From a phage, in sequence record PZ496580.1: 64,000 bases of DNA; one strand, written 5' to 3'. This document shows positions 3,966 to 54,369 of this stretch, in pieces. How positions within the stretch are numbered: the stretch's first letter is position 1; every line of letters begins with the position of its first letter. The notes under the pieces are model-generated. The model saw nothing but the letters and a program-made list of their open reading frames with translations. It was not told the origin of the DNA and did not search any database. The position numbers and the translations under genes are program-made.

Positions 3966-4007
3966 AGTCTCTTCCTCTCTTCGTTTTCGATGCTCTCACT
4001 ATATCAC

Positions 4008-4033
4008 AGAAAAATAAAAAGGGAAACCCCTTT
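4008..4033 (-). terminator. rho-independent terminator-like hairpin
   Basis: Stem 4018-4023/4028-4033 (aaaggg/cccttt) followed on minus strand by U-run from 4010-4017. Confidence 0.45.
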
Positions 4034-4055
4034 CAGAGTCTCCCTTATAAAGCCA

Positions 4056-4343
4056 TTACAGCATACTTAATACCGTTTGCCGTGTACTAACCCACATAGC
4101 AGAAAGCAGTTCTGGCGTGTGTGGCTGTTTGTAGATATCACGTAATTTTCCGATAGCGTAGATATACGCATCACGGTTATCATCGATGATAGCTTGTTCA
4201 GCCCACCTCTTAAGGCGTGCAATCTCTCGCGAGTTCTTACGCAAGATCTTTTCCGCTTTCTTAGCGGCTTTCGCCTCTAGTTCTGCTTGTACTTTGTCTA
4301 CTTCATTCACTACAATCTGGTCATGTTGTTCATCGTAAGTCAT
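4056..4343 (-). CDS. hypothetical protein (95 aa), coiled-coil rich
   Basis: ORF; followed on minus strand by hairpin plus U-run terminator at 4008-4033. Confidence 0.45.
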   Translation of the reverse strand: MTYDEQHDQIVVNEVDKVQAELEAKAAKKAEKILRKNSREIARLKRWAEQAIIDDNRDAYIYAIGKLRDIYKQPHTPELLSAMWVSTRQTVLSML

Positions 4344-4344
4344 A

Positions 4345-4578
4345 TTATTTTCCTTCTGGGATATAGTCGATGATTAAAGAAAATTCATCTTCTGATACAT
4401 TATAGCTATGTGAGATTGTACCCGTAAAGACCTCAAGGTCCGGTGATTTGATATTGCACGGATCGATAATCACCGGAACGCCGCAATCTCTCAAAAATAA
4501 TTTGGCGAAATACGGCACAAGGTCAGTTTCAAACTCTGCTTCTTCCAGCAAACGGGAAATGTTAATTTTCAATCTCAT
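4345..4578 (-). CDS. hypothetical protein (77 aa)
   Basis: ORF overlapping gene 55 3' end by 17 nt. Confidence 0.4.
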
Positions 4579-5095
4579 AAAATTGGTCCAGGCTAGGCAA
4601 TTCCTCGGTCAATACATCTTCAACCTTTGGCGCTTTCGGTTTATTGACCGATTCCTCGTAGTTGTTGATTTTATCGTAAATGTCCTGTATGAATGCCTCA
4701 TCCGCAATCTGGCACATATCAGCGTCGCGTTCGTCATATACATGATGCACAAAATATTTGTATTTTGCGGCGGTTGCTGTTCTTTCTTTTTTAATGCGCT
4801 GTACAAAGGCATTAAAGCACGCTTGCGTAATGTAAGCATGAGGATTTTTATACTTTGTCTCGTCAAAATTAATCAAACCCTTGACCGCCGCTTCGATTCC
4901 ATCGTCGATCATTTCTTCGCGCCACGTTTGACTATAGCCAGAAAAGTTAAAACGCCGTGATAGATTTTTAGAGATTTGCATAATTGCTAGGCCGATTTGG
5001 TCGCTCATTGGCACTTGTCGACCTTCGGCTGCAATTCGTTGTTTCCAACGGCAAATTTCTTCGTAAAGCTCTTTATTGTTTACATAATCAGACAC
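4562..5095 (-). CDS. 55: late-transcription sigma factor gp55
   Basis: YVNNKEL...IGLAIM...[10 protein letters not shown]...[23 protein letters not shown]...FIQDIYDK nearly collinear with T4 gp55; GTG start at 5095 with GAGGG Shine-Dalgarno. Confidence 0.9.
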
Positions 5096-10718: not shown

Positions 10719-10938
10719 GATGGATTGGTTCGATCTCGTGAAACAGTGCTAAACAATCATGATTATGCAACACTGGCTTACCATCAATCAATGCATGGAA
10801 TGTATACAAACGACCAGTAGACAAATAGCTGTCCTCACGCTCAACCAGTTCAATAGCAATCTTTTTAGCTCGTTCCTTGTGTCGTTGTGCTTTACGCTTA
10901 CGGTTTAATGATTTCATATTCACCTCACACATTATCAA
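10618..10938 (-). CDS. hypothetical protein (106 aa), basic N-terminus
   Basis: ORF overlapping next ORF; see frameshift finding. Confidence 0.4.
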   Translation of the reverse strand: MIMCEVNMKSLNRKRKAQRHKERAKKIAIELVEREDSYLSTGRLYTFHALIDGKPVLHNHDCLALFHEIEPIHREWDDNKSKGQYFLTCSCGHAGWCWILGTCYYP

Positions 10939-11480
10939 AGGTCGCGATATAGTACATTATGAAAATGAGAACTTGCATTACCAATATTGTAGATAATAAA
11001 TTCTTCATCCGGCGCTTGCGCTACAAATTGAGTATGAGCAACCGCTACAACCTTAAAAATACGATCCGTGATCTTGTGTTTAATTTCTGTTCCTACTTCC
11101 ATAGGAACATATTCATGTGTTTCTGTTTCAGTCGCAAAACAGCCATCTTCTTCATAAGCACGAACAAATCGATCGCAATCAGTACGCTTAACAAATTCAA
11201 GAGTATATAATTCTCGTGAATTGTCGGTATAAACCAACACAGAATTATTCTGATAGCGAATCACATACAGGTTATTATCATCGTCAATTACGCAAAAGCT
11301 ACGGATTTGTGTTCCTTCGCCTTTACTCCAGCAGATATTAACCACCGTTCCTCTAATAAAAAAACTTTCCTTTAAATTAAAACTAGCCAATGTGCTAGCG
11401 TGCATTTTAACAACAACACCATCGCCAATTTCCAGTTTACGAAGTTTAACTTCTTTGCTCAGCACACAAAACATCATCAT
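10935..11480 (-). CDS. hypothetical protein (181 aa)
   Basis: ATG at 11480 downstream of promoter 11510-11537; start is MMMFCV. Confidence 0.5.
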   Translation of the reverse strand: MMMFCVLSKEVKLRKLEIGDGVVVKMHASTLASFNLKESFFIRGTVVNICWSKGEGTQIRSFCVIDDDNNLYVIRYQNNSVLVYTDNSRELYTLEFVKRTDCDRFVRAYEEDGCFATETETHEYVPMEVGTEIKHKITDRIFKVVAVAHTQFVAQAPDEEFIIYNIGNASSHFHNVLYRDL

Positions 11481-20426: not shown

Positions 20427-20667
20427 AGTTTACCCACTCAACAAGATCTTTACCTAACTCGAAAGCCCATTCTCGGTCCTGCTTTACGTTTTGTAGGTAT
20501 GGACTTTCCGACACTCTACGAAGTGATGTTGTCGTAACAAGAATGATCCCAGGAATGGTCGGATGTTCCTTGCCATAAACAATAGGACGCGAGTCACTAT
20601 CAATACCTTGTAAGAAGGTGTATCCTGAATCACTTAGAATCATATACATTTTCATTTCACACATCAC
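20326..20667 (-). CDS. hypothetical protein, N-terminal segment of a possibly frameshifted gene
   Basis: ORF reading through the A7 tract at 20365-20371. Confidence 0.4.
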   Translation of the reverse strand: MMCEMKMYMILSDSGYTFLQGIDSDSRPIVYGKEHPTIPGIILVTTTSLRRVSESPYLQNVKQDREWAFELGKDLVEWVNCEDKNQRNHERKIARNVHRKKLDEIKNRILQSM

Positions 20668-20921
20668 AGTTTCCTCAACCAGTTATTAAAGCGAGCAAAC
20701 CATGATGCTTTTCGTGCTTCTTTTACTTTATGTGCACGAAAACCACTGAAACACCATTCATAATCATCACCGAAACATGATTCAACAGGAACACCCGCAT
20801 TTCGTAGTTCTCTGGTCTTTATCATGAATCCTTGACATAAGGGGCGACCTTCAACAATGATAGGAAGTTTAACTTTTTCCATGAAAGTATACCCAGCACG
20901 GTCAATAATTTCAATCTTCAT
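20664..20921 (-). CDS. small paralog-family protein (family B, MKIEIID type)
   Basis: MKIEIIDRAGYTFMEKVKLPIIVEGR... paralogous to 20940-21137 and 23263-23484. Confidence 0.5.
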   Translation of the reverse strand: MKIEIIDRAGYTFMEKVKLPIIVEGRPLCQGFMIKTRELRNAGVPVESCFGDDYEWCFSGFRAHKVKEARKASWFARFNNWLRKL

Positions 20922-20939
20922 AATATAATCCTCAATTAG

Positions 20940-21137
20940 TTATACTGCCCATGCTTCATTTGCACGAAAACACCATTCATACTCAGGAAAATAACCTTTA
21001 ATTGGTACGCCAGCTTTTTGTAGTTCCTGCGTTTCTACAAGATAATCAAGCCCATAACGACGACCTTCCACAATAATAGGAAGTTTAACGCCATTCATGA
21101 AAGAAAATCCACCATCATCAATAATTTCAATTTTCAT
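20940..21137 (-). CDS. small paralog-family protein (family B)
   Basis: MKIEIIDDGGFSFMNGVKLPIIVEGR...YEWCF. Confidence 0.5.
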   Translation of the reverse strand: MKIEIIDDGGFSFMNGVKLPIIVEGRRYGLDYLVETQELQKAGVPIKGYFPEYEWCFRANEAWAV

Positions 21138-21840: not shown

Positions 21841-22060
21841 TTCTTTTATATGGTACTATAACAGGATTAATACAGCAAGCACCAATTACGTTATGAGCAC
21901 CACAATTTAAGCATTTATAATCATGGAACTTATTAAGGAATCGACCAAACTCATAGCCGACTAACGCCGCGTGTACTTGAGTCTCGATCTCATCCATATC
22001 AGCCAATGTTTTAACCTTCATAATATAATCCTCAAATGGTAGTTTTGCGAAGATGGTCAT
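21824..22060 (-). CDS. hypothetical protein (78 aa) with CxxC...C cluster
   Basis: CLNCGAHNVIGACC motif. Confidence 0.4.
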   Translation of the reverse strand: MTIFAKLPFEDYIMKVKTLADMDEIETQVHAALVGYEFGRFLNKFHDYKCLNCGAHNVIGACCINPVIVPYKRNETEE

Positions 22061-22322
22061 TACATGCTTTTAATGCATCAGTCGCGGTGTCATAGCGAGT
22101 ATTATCATAGCACCAGTAACCATCTGTCAACTGATAAATCAATCCGTCCCTTTTAGCTTCGATGAAAGATAACTCTTTGAAAGTTTCTACTTTCTTTGCT
22201 GATACTCCACGGTCACGGCGCTTATAGAGTTTAGCTAAAATGCGTTCAGCTTGTTCCTCTTTATCACCAGACAGATCCCAAATAATGTTGCGGATATGTT
22301 TGATTAATTGTTCAGTGGTCAT
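22032..22322 (-). CDS. hypothetical protein (96 aa)
   Basis: Downstream of promoter 22352-22379. Confidence 0.45.
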   Translation of the reverse strand: MTTEQLIKHIRNIIWDLSGDKEEQAERILAKLYKRRDRGVSAKKVETFKELSFIEAKRDGLIYQLTDGYWCYDNTRYDTATDALKACNDHLRKTTI

Positions 22323-22351: not shown

Positions 22352-22379
22352 ATTATAGCATTGTGATTATCTTTGTCAA
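22352..22379 (-). promoter_or_regulatory. sigma70-type early promoter
   Basis: TTGACA(22374-22379)-16-TATAAT(22352-22357). Confidence 0.6.
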
Positions 22380-22383
22380 CACC

Positions 22384-22416
22384 CAAAAACAAAAAGGCTA
22401 CCCCGAAGGATAGCCC
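22384..22416 (-). terminator. rho-independent terminator (UUCG tetraloop)
   Basis: 8-bp stem with one G.U, loop uucg on minus RNA, followed by U-run; just after the stop of the glycine-rich gene. Confidence 0.6.
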
Positions 22417-22422
22417 ATAAAA

Positions 22423-23208
22423 TTACACGCGAGCACCGTAGATCGTGCCTACTTTATCCCAGCGAGGGGCATTGCCAGTAACAGCCTTACCAGCTGCGCC
22501 ACCCGAGTGAACAGTTCCTCCAGTACCACCTTGAATATATGAAGATTTGCCAGCAGACCCCAAATCTCCACCATTTCCTCCATAGTGAACCCCAGAAACA
22601 GTGCCTTTACCTGGGGCAGAAATTGTACCAGCAGATGCTGCCGCTGCGCCGCCTCCTGCCTTACCAGCAGCACCAAATGGACGGCCTCCGCCGCCTCCAA
22701 ATATCATATCCATTTGAGGGAAAGGATGGTATCTAGCACCAGCACCGCCACCACCGCCACCACCAATAATACCATTATTGTTTATTCTTAAACGAGTTCC
22801 AATTCCGTTATTTATTGCATTTCCTCCTGCTCCACCAGCAGAGTTACTTCCGCCATTTCCTCCCCGACCTAATACATGAACACCAGAGTTAATGATTAGT
22901 GTCACATATTCATTTGTTAGTGAGCTAGGGAAATCAAGACAAGGAACGCCAGTAGATTGGGAAACAATATTACCTGTGATAGTAATTACTACCGGAGTAG
23001 ATCCTTGTGCTTTCATCCAGTTAATAAGAGTGTCTTTATTGTAAGAGTTACTAGCGCCAATGCTATAATGAATCTCTTTAGAACGTCCGACCATCGCTGA
23101 CATATACGCCGGACGACCTAAGCGTACAGCTTGCATTGCGGCGCTCATCCACCGTTGACCAGTCTCAGACACAGCCGATGATCCGACCCAACCTGCTTTA
23201 ATTGCCAT
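22423..23208 (-). CDS. glycine-rich protein (261 aa), function unknown
   Basis: ATG at 23208; about 110-aa N-terminal domain then low-complexity Gly-rich C-terminus (GGGGGGGAGARYHPFP...GGGGGRPFGAAGKAGGG...); bracketed by terminator-like hairpins. Confidence 0.55.
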   Translation of the reverse strand: MAIKAGWVGSSAVSETGQRWMSAAMQAVRLGRPAYMSAMVGRSKEIHYSIGASNSYNKDTLINWMKAQGSTPVVITITGNIVSQSTGVPCLDFPSSLTNEYVTLIINSGVHVLGRGGNGGSNSAGGAGGNAINNGIGTRLRINNNGIIGGGGGGGAGARYHPFPQMDMIFGGGGGRPFGAAGKAGGGAAAASAGTISAPGKGTVSGVHYGGNGGDLGSAGKSSYIQGGTGGTVHSGGAAGKAVTGNAPRWDKVGTIYGARV

Positions 23209-23224
23209 AAAGTTTCCTCACAAG

Positions 23225-23244
23225 AAAAGCCCCAATTAAGGGGC
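23225..23244 (-). terminator. weak terminator-like hairpin
   Basis: 5-bp GC stem gcccc/ggggc with 6-nt loop then short U-run; lies between family-B gene and glycine-rich gene. Confidence 0.35.
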
Positions 23245-23262
23245 ATTGATTAATAATATTAC

Positions 23263-23484
23263 TTAGATGACCTCTGCTTCACCATTCAGGAAGAAAGACC
23301 ATGTTTTGTTAGGATAGCGAAGCGCCCATGATTCAGCAGTTTTAACACCAGCTTCGAACAATTGACGGCTGGTCACTTTAGCCATGCCATCTTCGATGGC
23401 AACGTTTTCAATAATCATTGGGTACTTAGCGCCACGCATGAAACCGAAGCCAGCGGAAGATTTGATAATTTTAACAGTTGCCAT
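23263..23484 (-). CDS. small paralog-family protein (family B)
   Basis: ATG at 23484 with GGAGA Shine-Dalgarno, downstream of promoter 23525-23553; MATVKIIKSSAGFGFMRGAKYPMIIEN... Confidence 0.5.
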   Translation of the reverse strand: MATVKIIKSSAGFGFMRGAKYPMIIENVAIEDGMAKVTSRQLFEAGVKTAESWALRYPNKTWSFFLNGEAEVI

Positions 23485-23524: not shown

Positions 23525-23553
23525 ATTATGCAATAACACCGGAACGCTGTCAA
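23525..23553 (-). promoter_or_regulatory. sigma70-type early promoter
   Basis: TTGACA(23548-23553)-17-CATAAT(23525-23530). Confidence 0.55.
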
Positions 23554-23856: not shown

Positions 23857-24203
23857 GCCAGACCTCGCAAAACACTAATAGCATAATCATGCTGGTTATT
23901 CATAATATCAATTGCATTGTGATAACGAGCTAAACCATCAAGGATAAATTCTTGTTTATCCTGTTTCAGTTTGGTATCACGCGCAGCCATAAGAGCATCA
24001 AGAACAGGTCCAAAGTGATTATCTAATTCATCTTCGGTTGCAATGTTTCCTATTGCCTCGTCGATCCGTGATTCTAATGCTTGCTTTTCGTTGATCGCTT
24101 GCTGGGTATATTCCAACACATCAAGAATATCGCGGGTAACGTCTCCGTGATAAGGTATTCCCGCATGAAGATGATCAATTAATCGCTGAATATCAATGTT
24201 CAA
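23853..24203 (-). CDS. hypothetical protein (116 aa)
   Basis: ORF with overlap to neighbours. Confidence 0.45.
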   Translation of the reverse strand: MNIDIQRLIDHLHAGIPYHGDVTRDILDVLEYTQQAINEKQALESRIDEAIGNIATEDELDNHFGPVLDALMAARDTKLKQDKQEFILDGLARYHNAIDIMNNQHDYAISVLRGLA

Positions 24204-24843: not shown

Positions 24844-26991
24844 TTATTCACGTCCATTTGTATAGTAGTGTTTGAATCGACCATAGCCAGTTTCAATAGA
24901 CATATCCTTCTGGCGGACAATAGCCCAATAACCATTACACGAATCTTGAAGATACAAATCCTTACCTTTTAGGAACTCATTAAAGATAGTGATTTGCCAG
25001 TCATAGTAGACAGAATCTTCAAGTTTATCCATCCAACCATGCGGATCTTCCATCAATTCGACAAGCTCATCAATCACCCAATACGGACACGGACTAAATC
25101 GACCTTTGCTAAACTCGTTAAACATAGTAACAATTTTAACTTCCGGTCTAGGTTCATCCGGTCGCACAGGACGTTTATTAACTACAACCTGAACATATTT
25201 TGTATACCCGACAATCTCGCCAGGATCTAGTTCATCGTTGCTGTTTTTATCAGCAAATGCAACAAATCGATAAACACCAGCATCCTCTAGCGTAACGTTT
25301 GCTTTACGGTAAATCGGACTTCTTGAGTCTTCCATTTCCATTTTAACACCGTTTTTACTAAACTCATAAGTCGGAACATATGAGGCTGGCGGTTTTAGCA
25401 TGGTTGCTTCTAGCGTCAGAGTATCACCTTCCGTAACCTGTACCGGATGAGGACCGTCAAACTCCATATTCGGCACTACTTCAACATGATAGGTCGAACG
25501 ACCAGCAATATCAAAATCAGTATGCGCACTAAATGGATCTTTACTCGGACTATCACGATATTCATGCGCCCAGATGCCGTTATGGTCTCGGTCCGCAGAG
25601 TCGGTGATCTTATATTCCTTAGTACCTAGCGGAAGTTCCGTTACTTTAACGTCGTTTTTGGTGATAACCAAAGTTCGCGTTTGTTCGGGATCATCACTAG
25701 CTGGCGGTTCAGGATCTACGATCTTGAGAACAATAGGTTCACCCACTTCAATATTACGATAATCATACTCTTTATCATAAATCTCAAGCATACGACGATC
25801 ATAAAATAATGGGCGACCGTTAGGAATCACCTGTTCACCCGCTGGATTGGCAGGAGCAACCAACAATTGAAGCGCAACGCTGTTATCATATTGCAATCCA
25901 GATAGCGTTATCCGGTCATAACCCTCATCGCCATATTTTTTACTTTGTAGTTTCTTACCGCCAAGCATCCACGTAAAGTAAACGTTGTTAGTAAGCATAC
26001 CATAATGACGATTCCATGAGCTATCGGCTTGCATCACTGGCATATCAAGGTTTACAGTAGATCCAGAAGGATAACGAAAATCAATAGCACTAAAATCACG
26101 GCTAAAAAATTCGTTTTCTTTTACGTTAACTGTAAATTGGTGTCGCTGTCCATCAATATATTGTTCACCAGATCCGGGTCCATTAACAACCTTATACGCA
26201 CGAACAAAAGCAACATAAACCCCAGCATCTGACGGTTGAGCGTGTTTAGTCACGTATAGAGTCTTATCTTTAGACTCATAAACCAAGCTACCATCATTAC
26301 GCTCTAGTCGATATCGGACAATAGTATATTCCGCCTGATTAGGTGCATCATCCTCTACAGTAAAATAAGCAGGTGCATATTTTTGTACGTTGAATACTTC
26401 CTTATTTTCAGTGATGTTTGCATAGAAAGGATATACAAATTTAACCTCACCATGTTCATCACTCAATTCCATTTTATATGTACCGGAAAATTCAGGCCAC
26501 GCGAATTTTGCAATTTTAAATTCACGATGGTCCAACCCCAGATCACCATCAACGGAATCAACCAAACCATCATTATAATAGAGGTCAACCGAAATATTAG
26601 GCTGGATATGACTACGAAAAACAATCTTTGCCTTGATTTCATCACCAATATTAAAAGACGTCGGCGGGTATACATGTTCCACATATGGATTGTCAAAAAG
26701 TTCAAAGGTGAAGTTTTCCGTGCCGATATCTACGGATTCGCCAGAAAGATTTTCATCATCTTGAGCAAAACCACGAACATTAACAGACCAACCTGTTTTA
26801 TCTTCCTCTTTAACAGATTTTAGTGGAAAAGATGGACCATCTGTCATTGTGATCAACTTATCATTCTTTTTCCACAAATAACCTTTTCGTCTTTTCTCTG
26901 GGTCTTCCGACTCAGCAACAATAGAACATTCAAAAGTATGAGGAAGCCAAATTTGAGAGTTAATTGTAGTGTTTTTGATTTCTGCTGGCAT
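24844..26991 (-). CDS. large protein with repeated Ig-like domains (715 aa)
   Basis: ATG at 26991; recurring Ig-type signatures (SDAGVYVAFV, EDAGVYRFVAF); longest ORF in the early region. Confidence 0.6.
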   Translation of the reverse strand: MPAEIKNTTINSQIWLPHTFECSIVAESEDPEKRRKGYLWKKNDKLITMTDGPSFPLKSVKEEDKTGWSVNVRGFAQDDENLSGESVDIGTENFTFELFDNPYVEHVYPPTSFNIGDEIKAKIVFRSHIQPNISVDLYYNDGLVDSVDGDLGLDHREFKIAKFAWPEFSGTYKMELSDEHGEVKFVYPFYANITENKEVFNVQKYAPAYFTVEDDAPNQAEYTIVRYRLERNDGSLVYESKDKTLYVTKHAQPSDAGVYVAFVRAYKVVNGPGSGEQYIDGQRHQFTVNVKENEFFSRDFSAIDFRYPSGSTVNLDMPVMQADSSWNRHYGMLTNNVYFTWMLGGKKLQSKKYGDEGYDRITLSGLQYDNSVALQLLVAPANPAGEQVIPNGRPLFYDRRMLEIYDKEYDYRNIEVGEPIVLKIVDPEPPASDDPEQTRTLVITKNDVKVTELPLGTKEYKITDSADRDHNGIWAHEYRDSPSKDPFSAHTDFDIAGRSTYHVEVVPNMEFDGPHPVQVTEGDTLTLEATMLKPPASYVPTYEFSKNGVKMEMEDSRSPIYRKANVTLEDAGVYRFVAFADKNSNDELDPGEIVGYTKYVQVVVNKRPVRPDEPRPEVKIVTMFNEFSKGRFSPCPYWVIDELVELMEDPHGWMDKLEDSVYYDWQITIFNEFLKGKDLYLQDSCNGYWAIVRQKDMSIETGYGRFKHYYTNGRE

Positions 26992-27709: not shown

Positions 27710-27749
27710 CCCCAGATTGAAAATATTCAGTTATATTTATAATCTGGGG
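27710..27749 (-). promoter_or_regulatory. T4-type late promoter TATAAATA embedded in a 9-bp inverted repeat, upstream of rI
   Basis: Minus strand TATAAATA at 27734-27741; inverted-repeat arms 27710-27718 and 27741-27749. Confidence 0.5.
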
Positions 27750-43537: not shown

Positions 43538-43592
43538 TTTAGCACCCTTTATTATAAATACATAATAATATTTATCAATTGAGGGTGCTAAA
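43538..43592. promoter_or_regulatory. divergent late-promoter region bracketed by a perfect 10-bp inverted repeat
   Basis: Arms tttagcaccc (43538-43547) and gggtgctaaa (43583-43592) each abut a start codon (gene 4 and gene 53); plus-strand TATAAATA at 43553-43560; minus-strand GATAAATA at 43569-43576. Confidence 0.55.
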
Positions 43593-44147
43593 ATGCTCTT
43601 TTCTTTCTTCCCTGCCATTGAATACAACGGCAAGATGATTACTGACATTGTGCGCAATTACCGCGCATATTTCAACGCAATAATTTCTGATTATAACATA
43701 CAAACATATTACATTCAAGGTAGTCCACGACCGGAACAAGTTGCATATGAAGTATACGGAAACCAACAACTTTACTGGATCTTGCTGATGCTTAATGACG
43801 TATACGATCCGTTCCATGACTGGATCACCGATCAAGAGACAGCATATGAATCAGCCGAACAGCGATATGCAAATGTAGGAGGAAATCAAGTATTATACCA
43901 CGTTGATATTGACGGAAACAAGTATTGGAATCTTACCGAATATCCTAAAGGATCAAGCAATTGGTATGATAAAGGGGATATTCATCACCGTCATTTGCAG
44001 TTTCATGGTGCATTATCGGCAGTAGACACACTGGAAGATGCGATCCTCCGTAATGAGGAACGACGCAAGATCAAGATCATAGATCCTACACAAATTAAAC
44101 AATTTATTAACGCATTCATTCGAGAAATGGAAAAGGCTGATGTGTAA
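43593..44147 (+). CDS. 53: baseplate wedge protein gp53
   Basis: 184 aa directly upstream of gene 5; TATAAATA late promoter at 43553-43560. Confidence 0.7.
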   Translation: MLFSFFPAIEYNGKMITDIVRNYRAYFNAIISDYNIQTYYIQGSPRPEQVAYEVYGNQQLYWILLMLNDVYDPFHDWITDQETAYESAEQRYANVGGNQVLYHVDIDGNKYWNLTEYPKGSSNWYDKGDIHHRHLQFHGALSAVDTLEDAILRNEERRKIKIIDPTQIKQFINAFIREMEKADV

Positions 44148-44158
44148 GGTGATTAATT

Positions 44159-45958
44159 ATGCTAATGTTTAATAACTCCGTTAAATGGTTTACCGGAATT
44201 GTAGAAAACAGGGAAGACCCATTAATGCTGGGGCGTGTTCAGGTTAGGATTCATGGTATACATCCCTCGCTATCCGCGCACGGTGACATTCAAGGTCTTC
44301 CAACCGAAGATCTATTATGGATTACGCCAGTACAAGATATTACAAGCGCGGCGATCTCCGGTATAGGTCAAAGCCCTACTGGTATTGTTGAAGGTTCAAT
44401 GGTATTTGGTTTGGCTTTAGATGAACGTTATTTAAACTGCGTTATTCTGGGTACTATTGCCGGACAATATACAGAGAAACCACTCACTACAGAAGGTTTT
44501 TGCGACCCTTCTGGTGCATATCCTCGTTATATTGGTAATGATGTTAATATTCTTGCTCGTGGCGGTATTAACCCAGAAACCGGGCAAACAACAAAACCTG
44601 ATAGTGTCTATATTCGAGATGAAAACACTGGAGTTGCAGTAAATCCAGACGACGAGCCATTAGATCAAATTCCGGTTGATGATAATCCTGATTTTACAAT
44701 AGAAAAAATGCTGCGTGGCGATGAGGGATATCGCGAGAAATGGTATCTTGATTCAGAAGGATATCCGACAATAGGCATCGGGCATTTGATCATTTATAAG
44801 AAAACCAGTGATCTGGGTATTATCAATAATGAACTTTCTAAGCTGGTAGGGCGCGAAGTTACAAACGGAAGACTTACTGCCGAAGAAGTTAGCAAAGTAT
44901 TTGCTGACGATATAGAAAAAACTCGTCGTGATATGCGCAAACATCCACGAATTGCACCTGTCTATAATAAATGTAATGCTTCTCGTCGTATGGCATTAGA
45001 AAATATGGCGTTTCAAATGGGTGTTGGTGGCTTAGGGAAATTTAAGAATAGTCTTGCTGCAATGCTGGCGGAAGAATGGAAACAAGCCTATGATGGATTA
45101 CGTCAATCGGTATGGGCTAACCAAACTCCAGGACGTTCAAGCCGTGTATCTAAAATTATTCTGACTGGTAACTTAGAATCATATGGCGTAATTGCTCCAA
45201 AGAAAGAGGAATCAATTTCTGATGACCCGCGAGCACGTTTGAGAAATGCCCGTATTGCTGCCTATAAGACGCAGAGAGCAGAAGAAGACCCAGAAGCACC
45301 GTTTACCCCACAAGACACACGAATCATGTTTAAAGAGCCTAAGAGTTCGTATTCTGCAAGGTATCCATATAACCATGTATACGAGTCAGAGAGCGGTCAT
45401 ATTATCGAGATTGATGATACTCCTTCTCACGAACGTTATCATCGTAAACATCCTTCTGGTACATTTGAAGAAACCAGACCGGACGGAACGAGGGTAGAAA
45501 AGATTGAAGGCGATGACTATTTGATCGTTAAACAAGGCCGGAAAGTAAACGTTAAGGGTAATTTGCAAGTTGTTGTTGAAGGTGACGCGCAAGTTTATTA
45601 TATGGGTAATGTGATGCAAACCGTTGATGGTAACGTCACTGAATTTATTCGTGGCAATGTTAATCAGACCGTTGAGGGTACTGCAAATATGCATGTTGTA
45701 GGTGATGTTATCGCACAGCTTGACGCTAATTTGACGGCTAATGTCAAGGGTAATGCTGAATTAATGATCGAGGGTAACACTACAGAGACAATTAAAGGTA
45801 ACTATGATTTAACCGTTGAGGGTAATTTTAATATGACCGTCAATGGCACTAAATCAGATCAGGTTAATGGTGACTGGTCCCGTAATTGTGGTGCAAGCGT
45901 TAAAGATATTGCATCTGGCACAGTTAAAATTGATGGTAGCCGTATTGATCTTGGGTGA
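44159..45958 (+). CDS. 5: baseplate hub and tail lysozyme gp5
   Basis: N-terminal OB domain; central T4-lysozyme-like domain (EGYREKWYLDSEGYPTIGIGHLI...NQTPGRSSRV); C-terminal VxGxxxxxx beta-helix repeats. Confidence 0.9.
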   Translation: MLMFNNSVKWFTGIVENREDPLMLGRVQVRIHGIHPSLSAHGDIQGLPTEDLLWITPVQDITSAAISGIGQSPTGIVEGSMVFGLALDERYLNCVILGTIAGQYTEKPLTTEGFCDPSGAYPRYIGNDVNILARGGINPETGQTTKPDSVYIRDENTGVAVNPDDEPLDQIPVDDNPDFTIEKMLRGDEGYREKWYLDSEGYPTIGIGHLIIYKKTSDLGIINNELSKLVGREVTNGRLTAEEVSKVFADDIEKTRRDMRKHPRIAPVYNKCNASRRMALENMAFQMGVGGLGKFKNSLAAMLAEEWKQAYDGLRQSVWANQTPGRSSRVSKIILTGNLESYGVIAPKKEESISDDPRARLRNARIAAYKTQRAEEDPEAPFTPQDTRIMFKEPKSSYSARYPYNHVYESESGHIIEIDDTPSHERYHRKHPSGTFEETRPDGTRVEKIEGDDYLIVKQGRKVNVKGNLQVVVEGDAQVYYMGNVMQTVDGNVTEFIRGNVNQTVEGTANMHVVGDVIAQLDANLTANVKGNAELMIEGNTTETIKGNYDLTVEGNFNMTVNGTKSDQVNGDWSRNCGASVKDIASGTVKIDGSRIDLG

Positions 45959-45966
45959 GGTAACTA

Positions 45967-46533
45967 ATGGTTGAAATTCTTCCTGTGAGTTCAAAATTGG
46001 AGGATATCAGCGAGCGAGAAATCTTTGAGGTGGTGTTCTCTTATAAAGCAACGCCACCTGATGCAAACACCACATACACGATTAAAGAGTTTAAGATCAG
46101 CGAGTATCGCCCTAATAAGGGCGTTACCGTTGAAGAAACTAAAATATCTGGTGAGTATCGGGATAGTTTTTCGCTTGGCGCGGATTCTCTTAAATATATA
46201 ACGAAAGATCGAATTAAAAAATCTGCCGGAAGTTTTGATGATTTACCAGATCCAACTACCGCAGATCTATATTATTTTAACGCTCCTACACGTCTACAGG
46301 AGGTTTATACTTATAAAGTAACCCTAACCTATATCCAATCTGTTTCAGAGTCTTCTGGTGGTTCCGGTGAAGGAAATAGTGGTGGTTCTAATAGCCGAGA
46401 GGGTGCTGGTGAAACTAATCCGCCTCCGGTAGTAACCGAACACACAATAGAGAAAGTTTATACTCAAACCGTTTTTGGAAATTGGGATGTGTGGAGTAAA
46501 CAGTTAAGAGATTATGTACATAGGGGTGTTTAA
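45967..46533 (+). CDS. hypothetical protein at gp5.1 position (188 aa)
   Basis: ORF between gene 5 and the PAAR gene; Gly/Ser-rich C-terminal segment. Confidence 0.55.
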
Positions 46534-54361: not shown

Positions 54362-54369
54362 TATAAATA
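54362..54369 (+). promoter_or_regulatory. T4-type late promoter for gene 9
   Basis: Exact TATAAATA about 28 nt upstream of the gene 9 ATG. Confidence 0.6.

Follow-up and report, generated by a model that had tools for sequence, protein, structure and literature searches.

A displaced, mosaic gene 38 encodes the predicted long-tail-fibre tip adhesin of an RB49-like phage

Introduction

What a phage protein with a glycine-rich C-terminal half is for, and how it is made when its gene lies between hairpins among early genes, is the question raised by an open reading frame on the minus strand of a 64,000-nt stretch of phage DNA (sequence record PZ496580.1; the whole stretch is referred to below as the window). 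An earlier note, prepared from the sequence without database searches, had favoured a secreted or membrane-targeting effector. The open reading frame was compared here with Pfam, PHROG, PDB sequences and phage records, and its surroundings were searched for transcription signals. Its identity, family, architecture (by alignment), location, flanking signals and mosaicism come from the present analysis, and the adhesin function and the mode of attachment are taken from the literature.

Results and Discussion

Identity and family of the gene

The open reading frame was annotated as follows.

22423..23208, minus strand: g38, encoding the long-tail-fibre tip adhesin gp38 (ATG open reading frame, 261 aa; Pfam, PHROG and PDB matches)

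Two Pfam families together cover nearly the whole product: GP38 (PF05268; E 1.9e-70, 237.5 bits against a cutoff of 25; residues 45-261, profile positions 1-218 of 218) and Gp38_N (PF21721; E 6.2e-18, 65 bits against a cutoff of 25; residues 1-40, profile positions 1-40 of 40). PHROG 2056 ("tail fiber protein; host specificity") was matched at 2.5e-99. The search of PDB sequences returned 6F45 chain D, the S16 gp38 that caps the gp37 trimer, as a homologue over the full length (50% identity at 2e-49, with residues 1-259 of the query aligned to residues 1-247 of the chain), together with the T2-type gp38 9v85 (E 7e-31). Homologues were found by tblastn in 778 phage records, one per genome, labelled as adhesin or receptor-recognising protein; a second gp38-like sequence was found neither in the window (tblastn) nor in Krischvirus records.

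All 261 residues of the protein are the same as in QZI93396.1 of phage Brandy (100% identity), and the 2.5 kb around g38 are 99.1% identical to the Brandy genome (MZ504876). Judged by this comparison, the window belongs either to Brandy, with differences in sequence, or to a phage very closely related to it. Brandy and Brandy49 share with the window the 261-aa sequence, the neighbouring genes and the flanking hairpins. [quoted passage not shown]

A different function is implied by GenBank labels such as "Putative distal long tail fiber assembly catalyst" in GEC-3S and "tail assembly protein" elsewhere, according to which the protein would help gp37 to fold, in the manner of T4 gp38, and would not be part of the virion. 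T4 gp38 has the same gene number and the same slot after gene 37 in T4-type genomes, but according to the literature it is unrelated in sequence and role, being a folding chaperone that is not in the virion. The window protein matches the S16/T2 type over its full length, the S16-type protein caps gp37 in the crystal structure, T4 gp38 is very different in sequence, and RB49-like gp37 has a self-cleaving chaperone domain of its own. The "assembly catalyst" annotations in Krischvirus are a name carried over from T4 gp38, and a chaperone function for the window protein is very improbable.

Architecture of the protein and the role of the glycine-rich half

The 261-aa glycine-rich frame that the earlier note had described is present, with its glycine runs (G7 at residues 149-155, G5 at 171-175) and its motifs HYGG (208-211) and YIQGG (224-228). 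Its division into an N-terminal domain of roughly 110 aa and a low-complexity tail of about 150 aa holds only approximately: the glycine content is 9% in residues 1-110 and 33% in residues 111-261, but in the alignment to S16 gp38 glycine-rich motifs alternate with strands of the beta-helix, which also takes in the last ~25 residues.

The structure of S16 gp38 comprises an N-terminal helical attachment domain, which docks via conserved tryptophans, and a five-rung beta-helix with two long excursions. The ten glycine-rich motifs of these excursions form a three-layer polyglycine-II lattice (PGII sandwich), and the binding site is proposed to lie in the distal hypervariable loops. In the window protein, the glycine-rich motifs, the long glycine run included, align in register with their S16 counterparts; this half of the protein is therefore read as the scaffold of a receptor-binding head and not as disordered low-complexity sequence. 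Glycine columns at G114-G120, G125, G128-129, G150-155, G171-175, G211-214 and G236-237 are invariant across the Krischvirus, Tequatrovirus and S16 proteins, and the variation is concentrated between them. The window protein is 12 residues longer than S16 gp38, mostly in loop regions. S16 gp38 also differs in its hypervariable loops, in its host (Salmonella) and in having its gene adjoin g37. The polyglycine-II fold of the window protein was deduced from the alignment to 6F45 and from the published AlphaFold models of the identical Brandy49 protein; a single-sequence AlphaFold2 model was uninformative (mean pLDDT 32.6).

In the attachment domain, W7 and W20 are invariant in the alignment. Tyr35 aligns with W36 of S16 and with a tryptophan in Tequatrovirus, at what may be one of the three aromatic docking positions. 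Codons 4-5 of g38 (23194..23199, minus strand) encode Lys-Ala in the window and in Brandy versus Ser-Ser in GEC-3S and kaaroe. This patch lies at the very start of the attachment domain and holds several nucleotide changes within about 12 nt, with flanks that are otherwise identical.

By analogy with this template, the N-terminal ~45 residues would dock on the end of the gp37 trimer once gp37 has shed its C-terminal chaperone, strands from the middle and the C-terminus would build a small beta-helix, and the polyglycine-II lattice would present short hypervariable loops that make contact with a receptor in the outer membrane and thereby determine the host range. The gp37 of RB49-like phages, like that of most T-even relatives, loses its C-terminal chaperone domain, and one gp38 monomer sits on each of the six long tail fibres. 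Receptors are recognised by the C-terminal part of gp38; host-range differences among these phages track gp38, and host-range mutants of RB49 carry E230K or Y231S in it.

The earlier note had listed three resemblances for the glycine-rich part, of which the one to gp38-type phage adhesins is borne out by the Pfam, PHROG and PDB matches. A colicin- or microcin-like effector, secreted or targeted to membranes and made early in infection, could be argued for from the aromatic and basic residues within the glycine-rich C-terminal half and from the setting of the gene, which lies on the early strand among early genes, behind a sigma-70-type promoter and without a late promoter. At E<=1, however, Pfam returned GP38 and Gp38_N only, with no colicin or microcin family, and the PDB search returned gp38 adhesins and noise-level matches to superoxide dismutase only; the suggested likeness to colicin translocation domains or class II microcins found no match in either. 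[quoted passage not shown] The note itself had named a structural virion protein with a known tail-fibre role as the observation that would speak against its favoured effector, which is now extremely improbable.

A mosaic allele

The DNA identity of g38 was scanned in 60-nt windows against GEC-3S (Krischvirus) and Kha5h (Tequatrovirus), and the middle of the gene was used as a megablast query.

22489..22869, minus strand: receptor-specifying segment of g38 (gene nt ~340-720, aa ~114-240), a recombinant module common to Tequatrovirus adhesins (windowed DNA identity, megablast)
g38 nt 61-300: 93-97% identity to GEC-3S, 58-83% to Kha5h
g38 nt 361-720: 43-77% identity to GEC-3S, 88-97% to Kha5h
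g38 nt 721-786: 100% identity to GEC-3S, 58-77% to Kha5h

The first 120 nt of the gene are 58-65% identical to Kha5h-type Tequatrovirus DNA. With the middle segment, megablast gave matches in 10 Krischvirus records at 95.5-100% identity and in about 28 Tequatrovirus records at 91.6-94.2%, and no RB49/GEC-3S-type Krischvirus was among these matches. The overall identity of the window protein is 84% to GEC-3S gp38 and 89% to Kha5h gp38.

Set against the RB49/GEC-3S-type genes, which comprise OmpA- and O-antigen-binding alleles, the window gene is alike in its displaced locus, its promoter and terminator signals, its attachment domain and its C-terminus, and it differs in the receptor segment (43-77% DNA identity) and hence in overall protein identity. 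With Tequatrovirus phages Kha5h, TadeuszReichstein (Bas43), KIT06, slur07 and RB18 it shares 89% overall and, in the receptor half, 91-97% of the protein and 92-94% of the DNA sequence. Unlike the window gene, the Kha5h/Bas43-type g38 occupies the canonical position between g37 and the holin gene, and the first ~50 residues of its product, which dock on gp37, are of Tequatrovirus type. On these alignments the allele is a mosaic in which a Krischvirus attachment domain and a Krischvirus C-terminus flank a receptor segment shared with Tequatrovirus. Adhesin modules are known to be swapped through recombination at conserved motifs (Trojet 2011), and the present allele is a cross-genus case of it.

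The gp38 proteins of Kha5h (3980-4771) and Bas43 (1018-1809) are nearly identical to Krischvirus gp38 from about residue 50 on, with the beta-helix included. The N-terminal halves of typical Tequatrovirus gp38 proteins are only about 45% identical to Krischvirus gp38. Judging from these sequences, the Kha5h-type allele may in turn derive from a Krischvirus-type gene fused to a Tequatrovirus docking end, and transfer may have run in either direction.

Predicted receptor

Residues 161-261 of the window protein are 94% identical to Bas43 gp38, and four differences are found in the receptor domain (residues 115-245): N130T, K184A, S218A and Q226K. The primary receptor of Bas43 has been determined by experiment to be Tsx, which is also used by some Krischviruses. 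Because the receptor module is near-identical to that of a Tsx user, the nucleoside channel Tsx is predicted, with modest preference, to be the receptor of the Brandy-type allele on E. coli K-12. The receptor of FL37 and FL38, which carry the same allele, is not stated in PMC12032242, so that the prediction draws on Bas43.

Brandy49, whose gp38 is divergent and whose host range is different and broader, plates on K-12 without ompA and on E. coli 4s mutated in waaC or waaG; RB49-type phages, in contrast, need OmpA on K-12. Brandy49-resistant mutants retain the O antigen, and the receptor was left unidentified in 2022 (PMC9569957). The specificity of gp38 can change by one to a few substitutions in the hypervariable loops: Q206L switches recognition from OmpF to OmpW, and PST and T6 differ likewise.

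The displaced locus

The position of the gene in the early region, as claimed in the earlier note, is confirmed by its same-strand neighbours dam, nrdC, endonuclease VII, tk, rI and vs; g37 is not near g38 in the window. The 163,424-bp genome of GEC-3S gives the full picture. There, g37 ends at 153763 and g38 lies at 45726-46505 on the opposite strand, 55.4 kb away around the genome, and the fibre cluster at 144-155 kb contains g34-g35-g36-g37, a 79-aa open reading frame and the holin gene. The 79-aa frame (GEC-3S excerpt 10807-11046; outside the window) occupies the canonical g38 slot between g37 and the holin gene, and a 79-aa frame in this slot of RB49 is mentioned by Trojet 2011. That g38 lies apart from g37 has been published as characteristic of RB49-like phages (Trojet 2011; bioRxiv 2026), and a displaced g38 has been reported for FL37 and FL38 too. 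Non-adjacency to g37 is a known genus trait and does not define the gp38 family.

The signals and the small open reading frame around g38 are given below in the direction of transcription.

23525..23553, minus strand: sigma-70-type early promoter, TTGACA-17-CATAAT, the nearest promoter-like signal upstream of g38 (sequence; GEC-3S annotation; conserved)
23263..23484, minus strand: 73-aa open reading frame between the early promoter and g38 (without Pfam match)
23229..23244, minus strand: upstream hairpin with 5 GC pairs and a 6-nt loop, GCCCC-TTAATT-GGGGC followed by TTTTCTT (sequence; terminator in GEC-3S annotation)
23214..23219, minus strand: Shine-Dalgarno-like GAGGAA, 5 nt before the g38 ATG (sequence; conserved in GEC-3S and kaaroe)
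22395..22416, minus strand: downstream intrinsic terminator of g38 with a 9-bp stem, a UUCG-type loop and a T-run, TTTTTGTTTTT (sequence; terminator in GEC-3S annotation)
22352..22379, minus strand: sigma-70 early promoter, perfect TTGACA-16-TATAAT, directly after the terminator (sequence; promoter in GEC-3S annotation)

Both hairpins that had been said to bracket the gene lie on the coding strand (23244..23229 and 22416..22395), and both are invariant in three Krischviruses. They differ in strength. The downstream one folds as RNA with -14.7 kcal/mol (z = -4.1). The upstream one stands 20 nt ahead of the g38 ATG, within a 48-nt stretch of weak folding signal (z = -1.6), and is probably a leaky terminator-like element between the 73-aa frame and g38. 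From its sequence, the promoter at 22352..22379 is predicted to drive the next gene, 22032..22322. The terminator 22416..22395 and the promoter 22379..22352 together fit the definition of a PeSL (promoter-early/stem-loop) cassette, namely a GC-rich stem-loop followed by a near-perfect sigma-70 promoter in a hyperplastic region; the upstream hairpin 23244..23229, with no promoter after it, is a stem-loop only and not a PeSL. Such cassettes were described for the hyperplastic regions of RB49 and phi1 and were proposed to mediate modular shuffling (Arbiol 2010). In the window, g38 is carried in a small hyperplastic-region cassette made up of an early promoter, the 73-aa frame, the weak hairpin, g38, and the strong terminator with the next early promoter, and its displacement may have been mediated by PeSLs; g38 is not mentioned in the PeSL paper (Arbiol 2010).

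The 73-aa frame, which is apparently co-transcribed with g38, is one of a small family of paralogous frames (23263..23484, 20664..20921 and 20940..21137, all on the minus strand) with the N-terminal motif M..KIEII/VKIIK..G..FM...K.P.I.E; phage kaaroe has two members under one PVOG label, and there is no Pfam match. About 1.6 kb upstream of g38, a 715-aa frame (24844..26991, minus strand; Brandy QZI93402.1, "hypothetical protein") has no GEC-3S counterpart at that place. Its sole Pfam match is a sub-threshold one to Ig_3 (E 1.3e-4; 22.8 bits, cutoff 30), and the frame has the appearance of a large accessory gene that entered the hyperplastic early region by insertion. The 96-aa frame downstream of g38 (22032..22322, minus strand) matched the Csm6 6H domain of Pfam weakly and below threshold (E 0.0068; 16.9 bits, cutoff 27.6), which is probably noise.

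Transcription of g38

The earlier note had seen no promoter hexamers in front of the gene. This is correct for the 55-nt intergenic space but does not extend further upstream, where TTGACA-17-CATAAT (23553..23525) precedes the 73-aa frame. The exact late motif TATAAATA occurs in four copies in the window, none of them near g38. Two copies, at 43553..43560 and 54362..54369 (both plus strand), lie about 30-40 nt before structural open reading frames starting at 43593 and 54397, and one, at 27734..27741 (minus strand), lies in the rI region. Since the canonical late motif is used by this phage, its absence ahead of g38 is noticeable. When T4-type late promoters with <=1 mismatch were sought on the minus strand between 23150 and 24000, only TATGAATA at 23904 was found, 700 nt upstream and inside another open reading frame; no late promoter in a plausible position was found within 800 bp upstream of g38 at this tolerance. 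The late promoter consensus of RB49 is (A/T)ATAAATA, and this relaxed form is also absent before g38, because the scan with <=1 mismatch gave only the site at 23904.

As no T4-type late promoter is present, we infer that transcription of g38 starts at the upstream sigma-70 early promoter and reads through the weak hairpin, which would be the simplest reading of the sequence ahead of the gene. Virion proteins of T4-type phages are not usually made from early promoters. In RB49, neither a motA orthologue nor a middle-promoter consensus was found, and RB49 is absent from the genomes listed with asiA. Speculatively, sigma-70 promoters might remain active for longer than they do in T4.

A silent or decaying extra copy, stranded by rearrangement between two terminators, could be supposed from the distance of ~55 kb to gene 37, the terminator-like hairpins on both sides and the missing late promoter, but it is scarcely conceivable given an intact frame with a good Shine-Dalgarno sequence, the absence of any other gp38 homologue from the window and from each Krischvirus record, a canonical slot after g37 that holds just the 79-aa frame, flanks that are conserved while the receptor loops vary as expected under host-range selection, and RB49 host-range mutations that map to g38.

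The reading of the gene as an expressed tip adhesin can be extended to a combined proposal, in which Brandy gp38 is a recent cross-genus recombinant with loops from the Tsx pool, the receptor of Brandy49 is Tsx, and the protein is synthesised by terminator read-through from the early promoter and not from a gp55-dependent late one. That all three parts hold together is given even odds.

Conclusions

The gp38 protein and its displaced position in RB49-like genomes were already described and represent no new biology. Mildly new are only the cross-genus mosaic, the Tsx prediction for the Brandy-type allele that results from it, and the observation that g38 has no recognisable late promoter, which raises the question of expression timing in Krischviruses. 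The module shared with Tsx-dependent adhesins provides a receptor hypothesis for a broad-host-range phage of therapeutic cocktails. In most T4-type coliphages gp38 is the main host-range determinant, and it is a target in therapeutic phage engineering.
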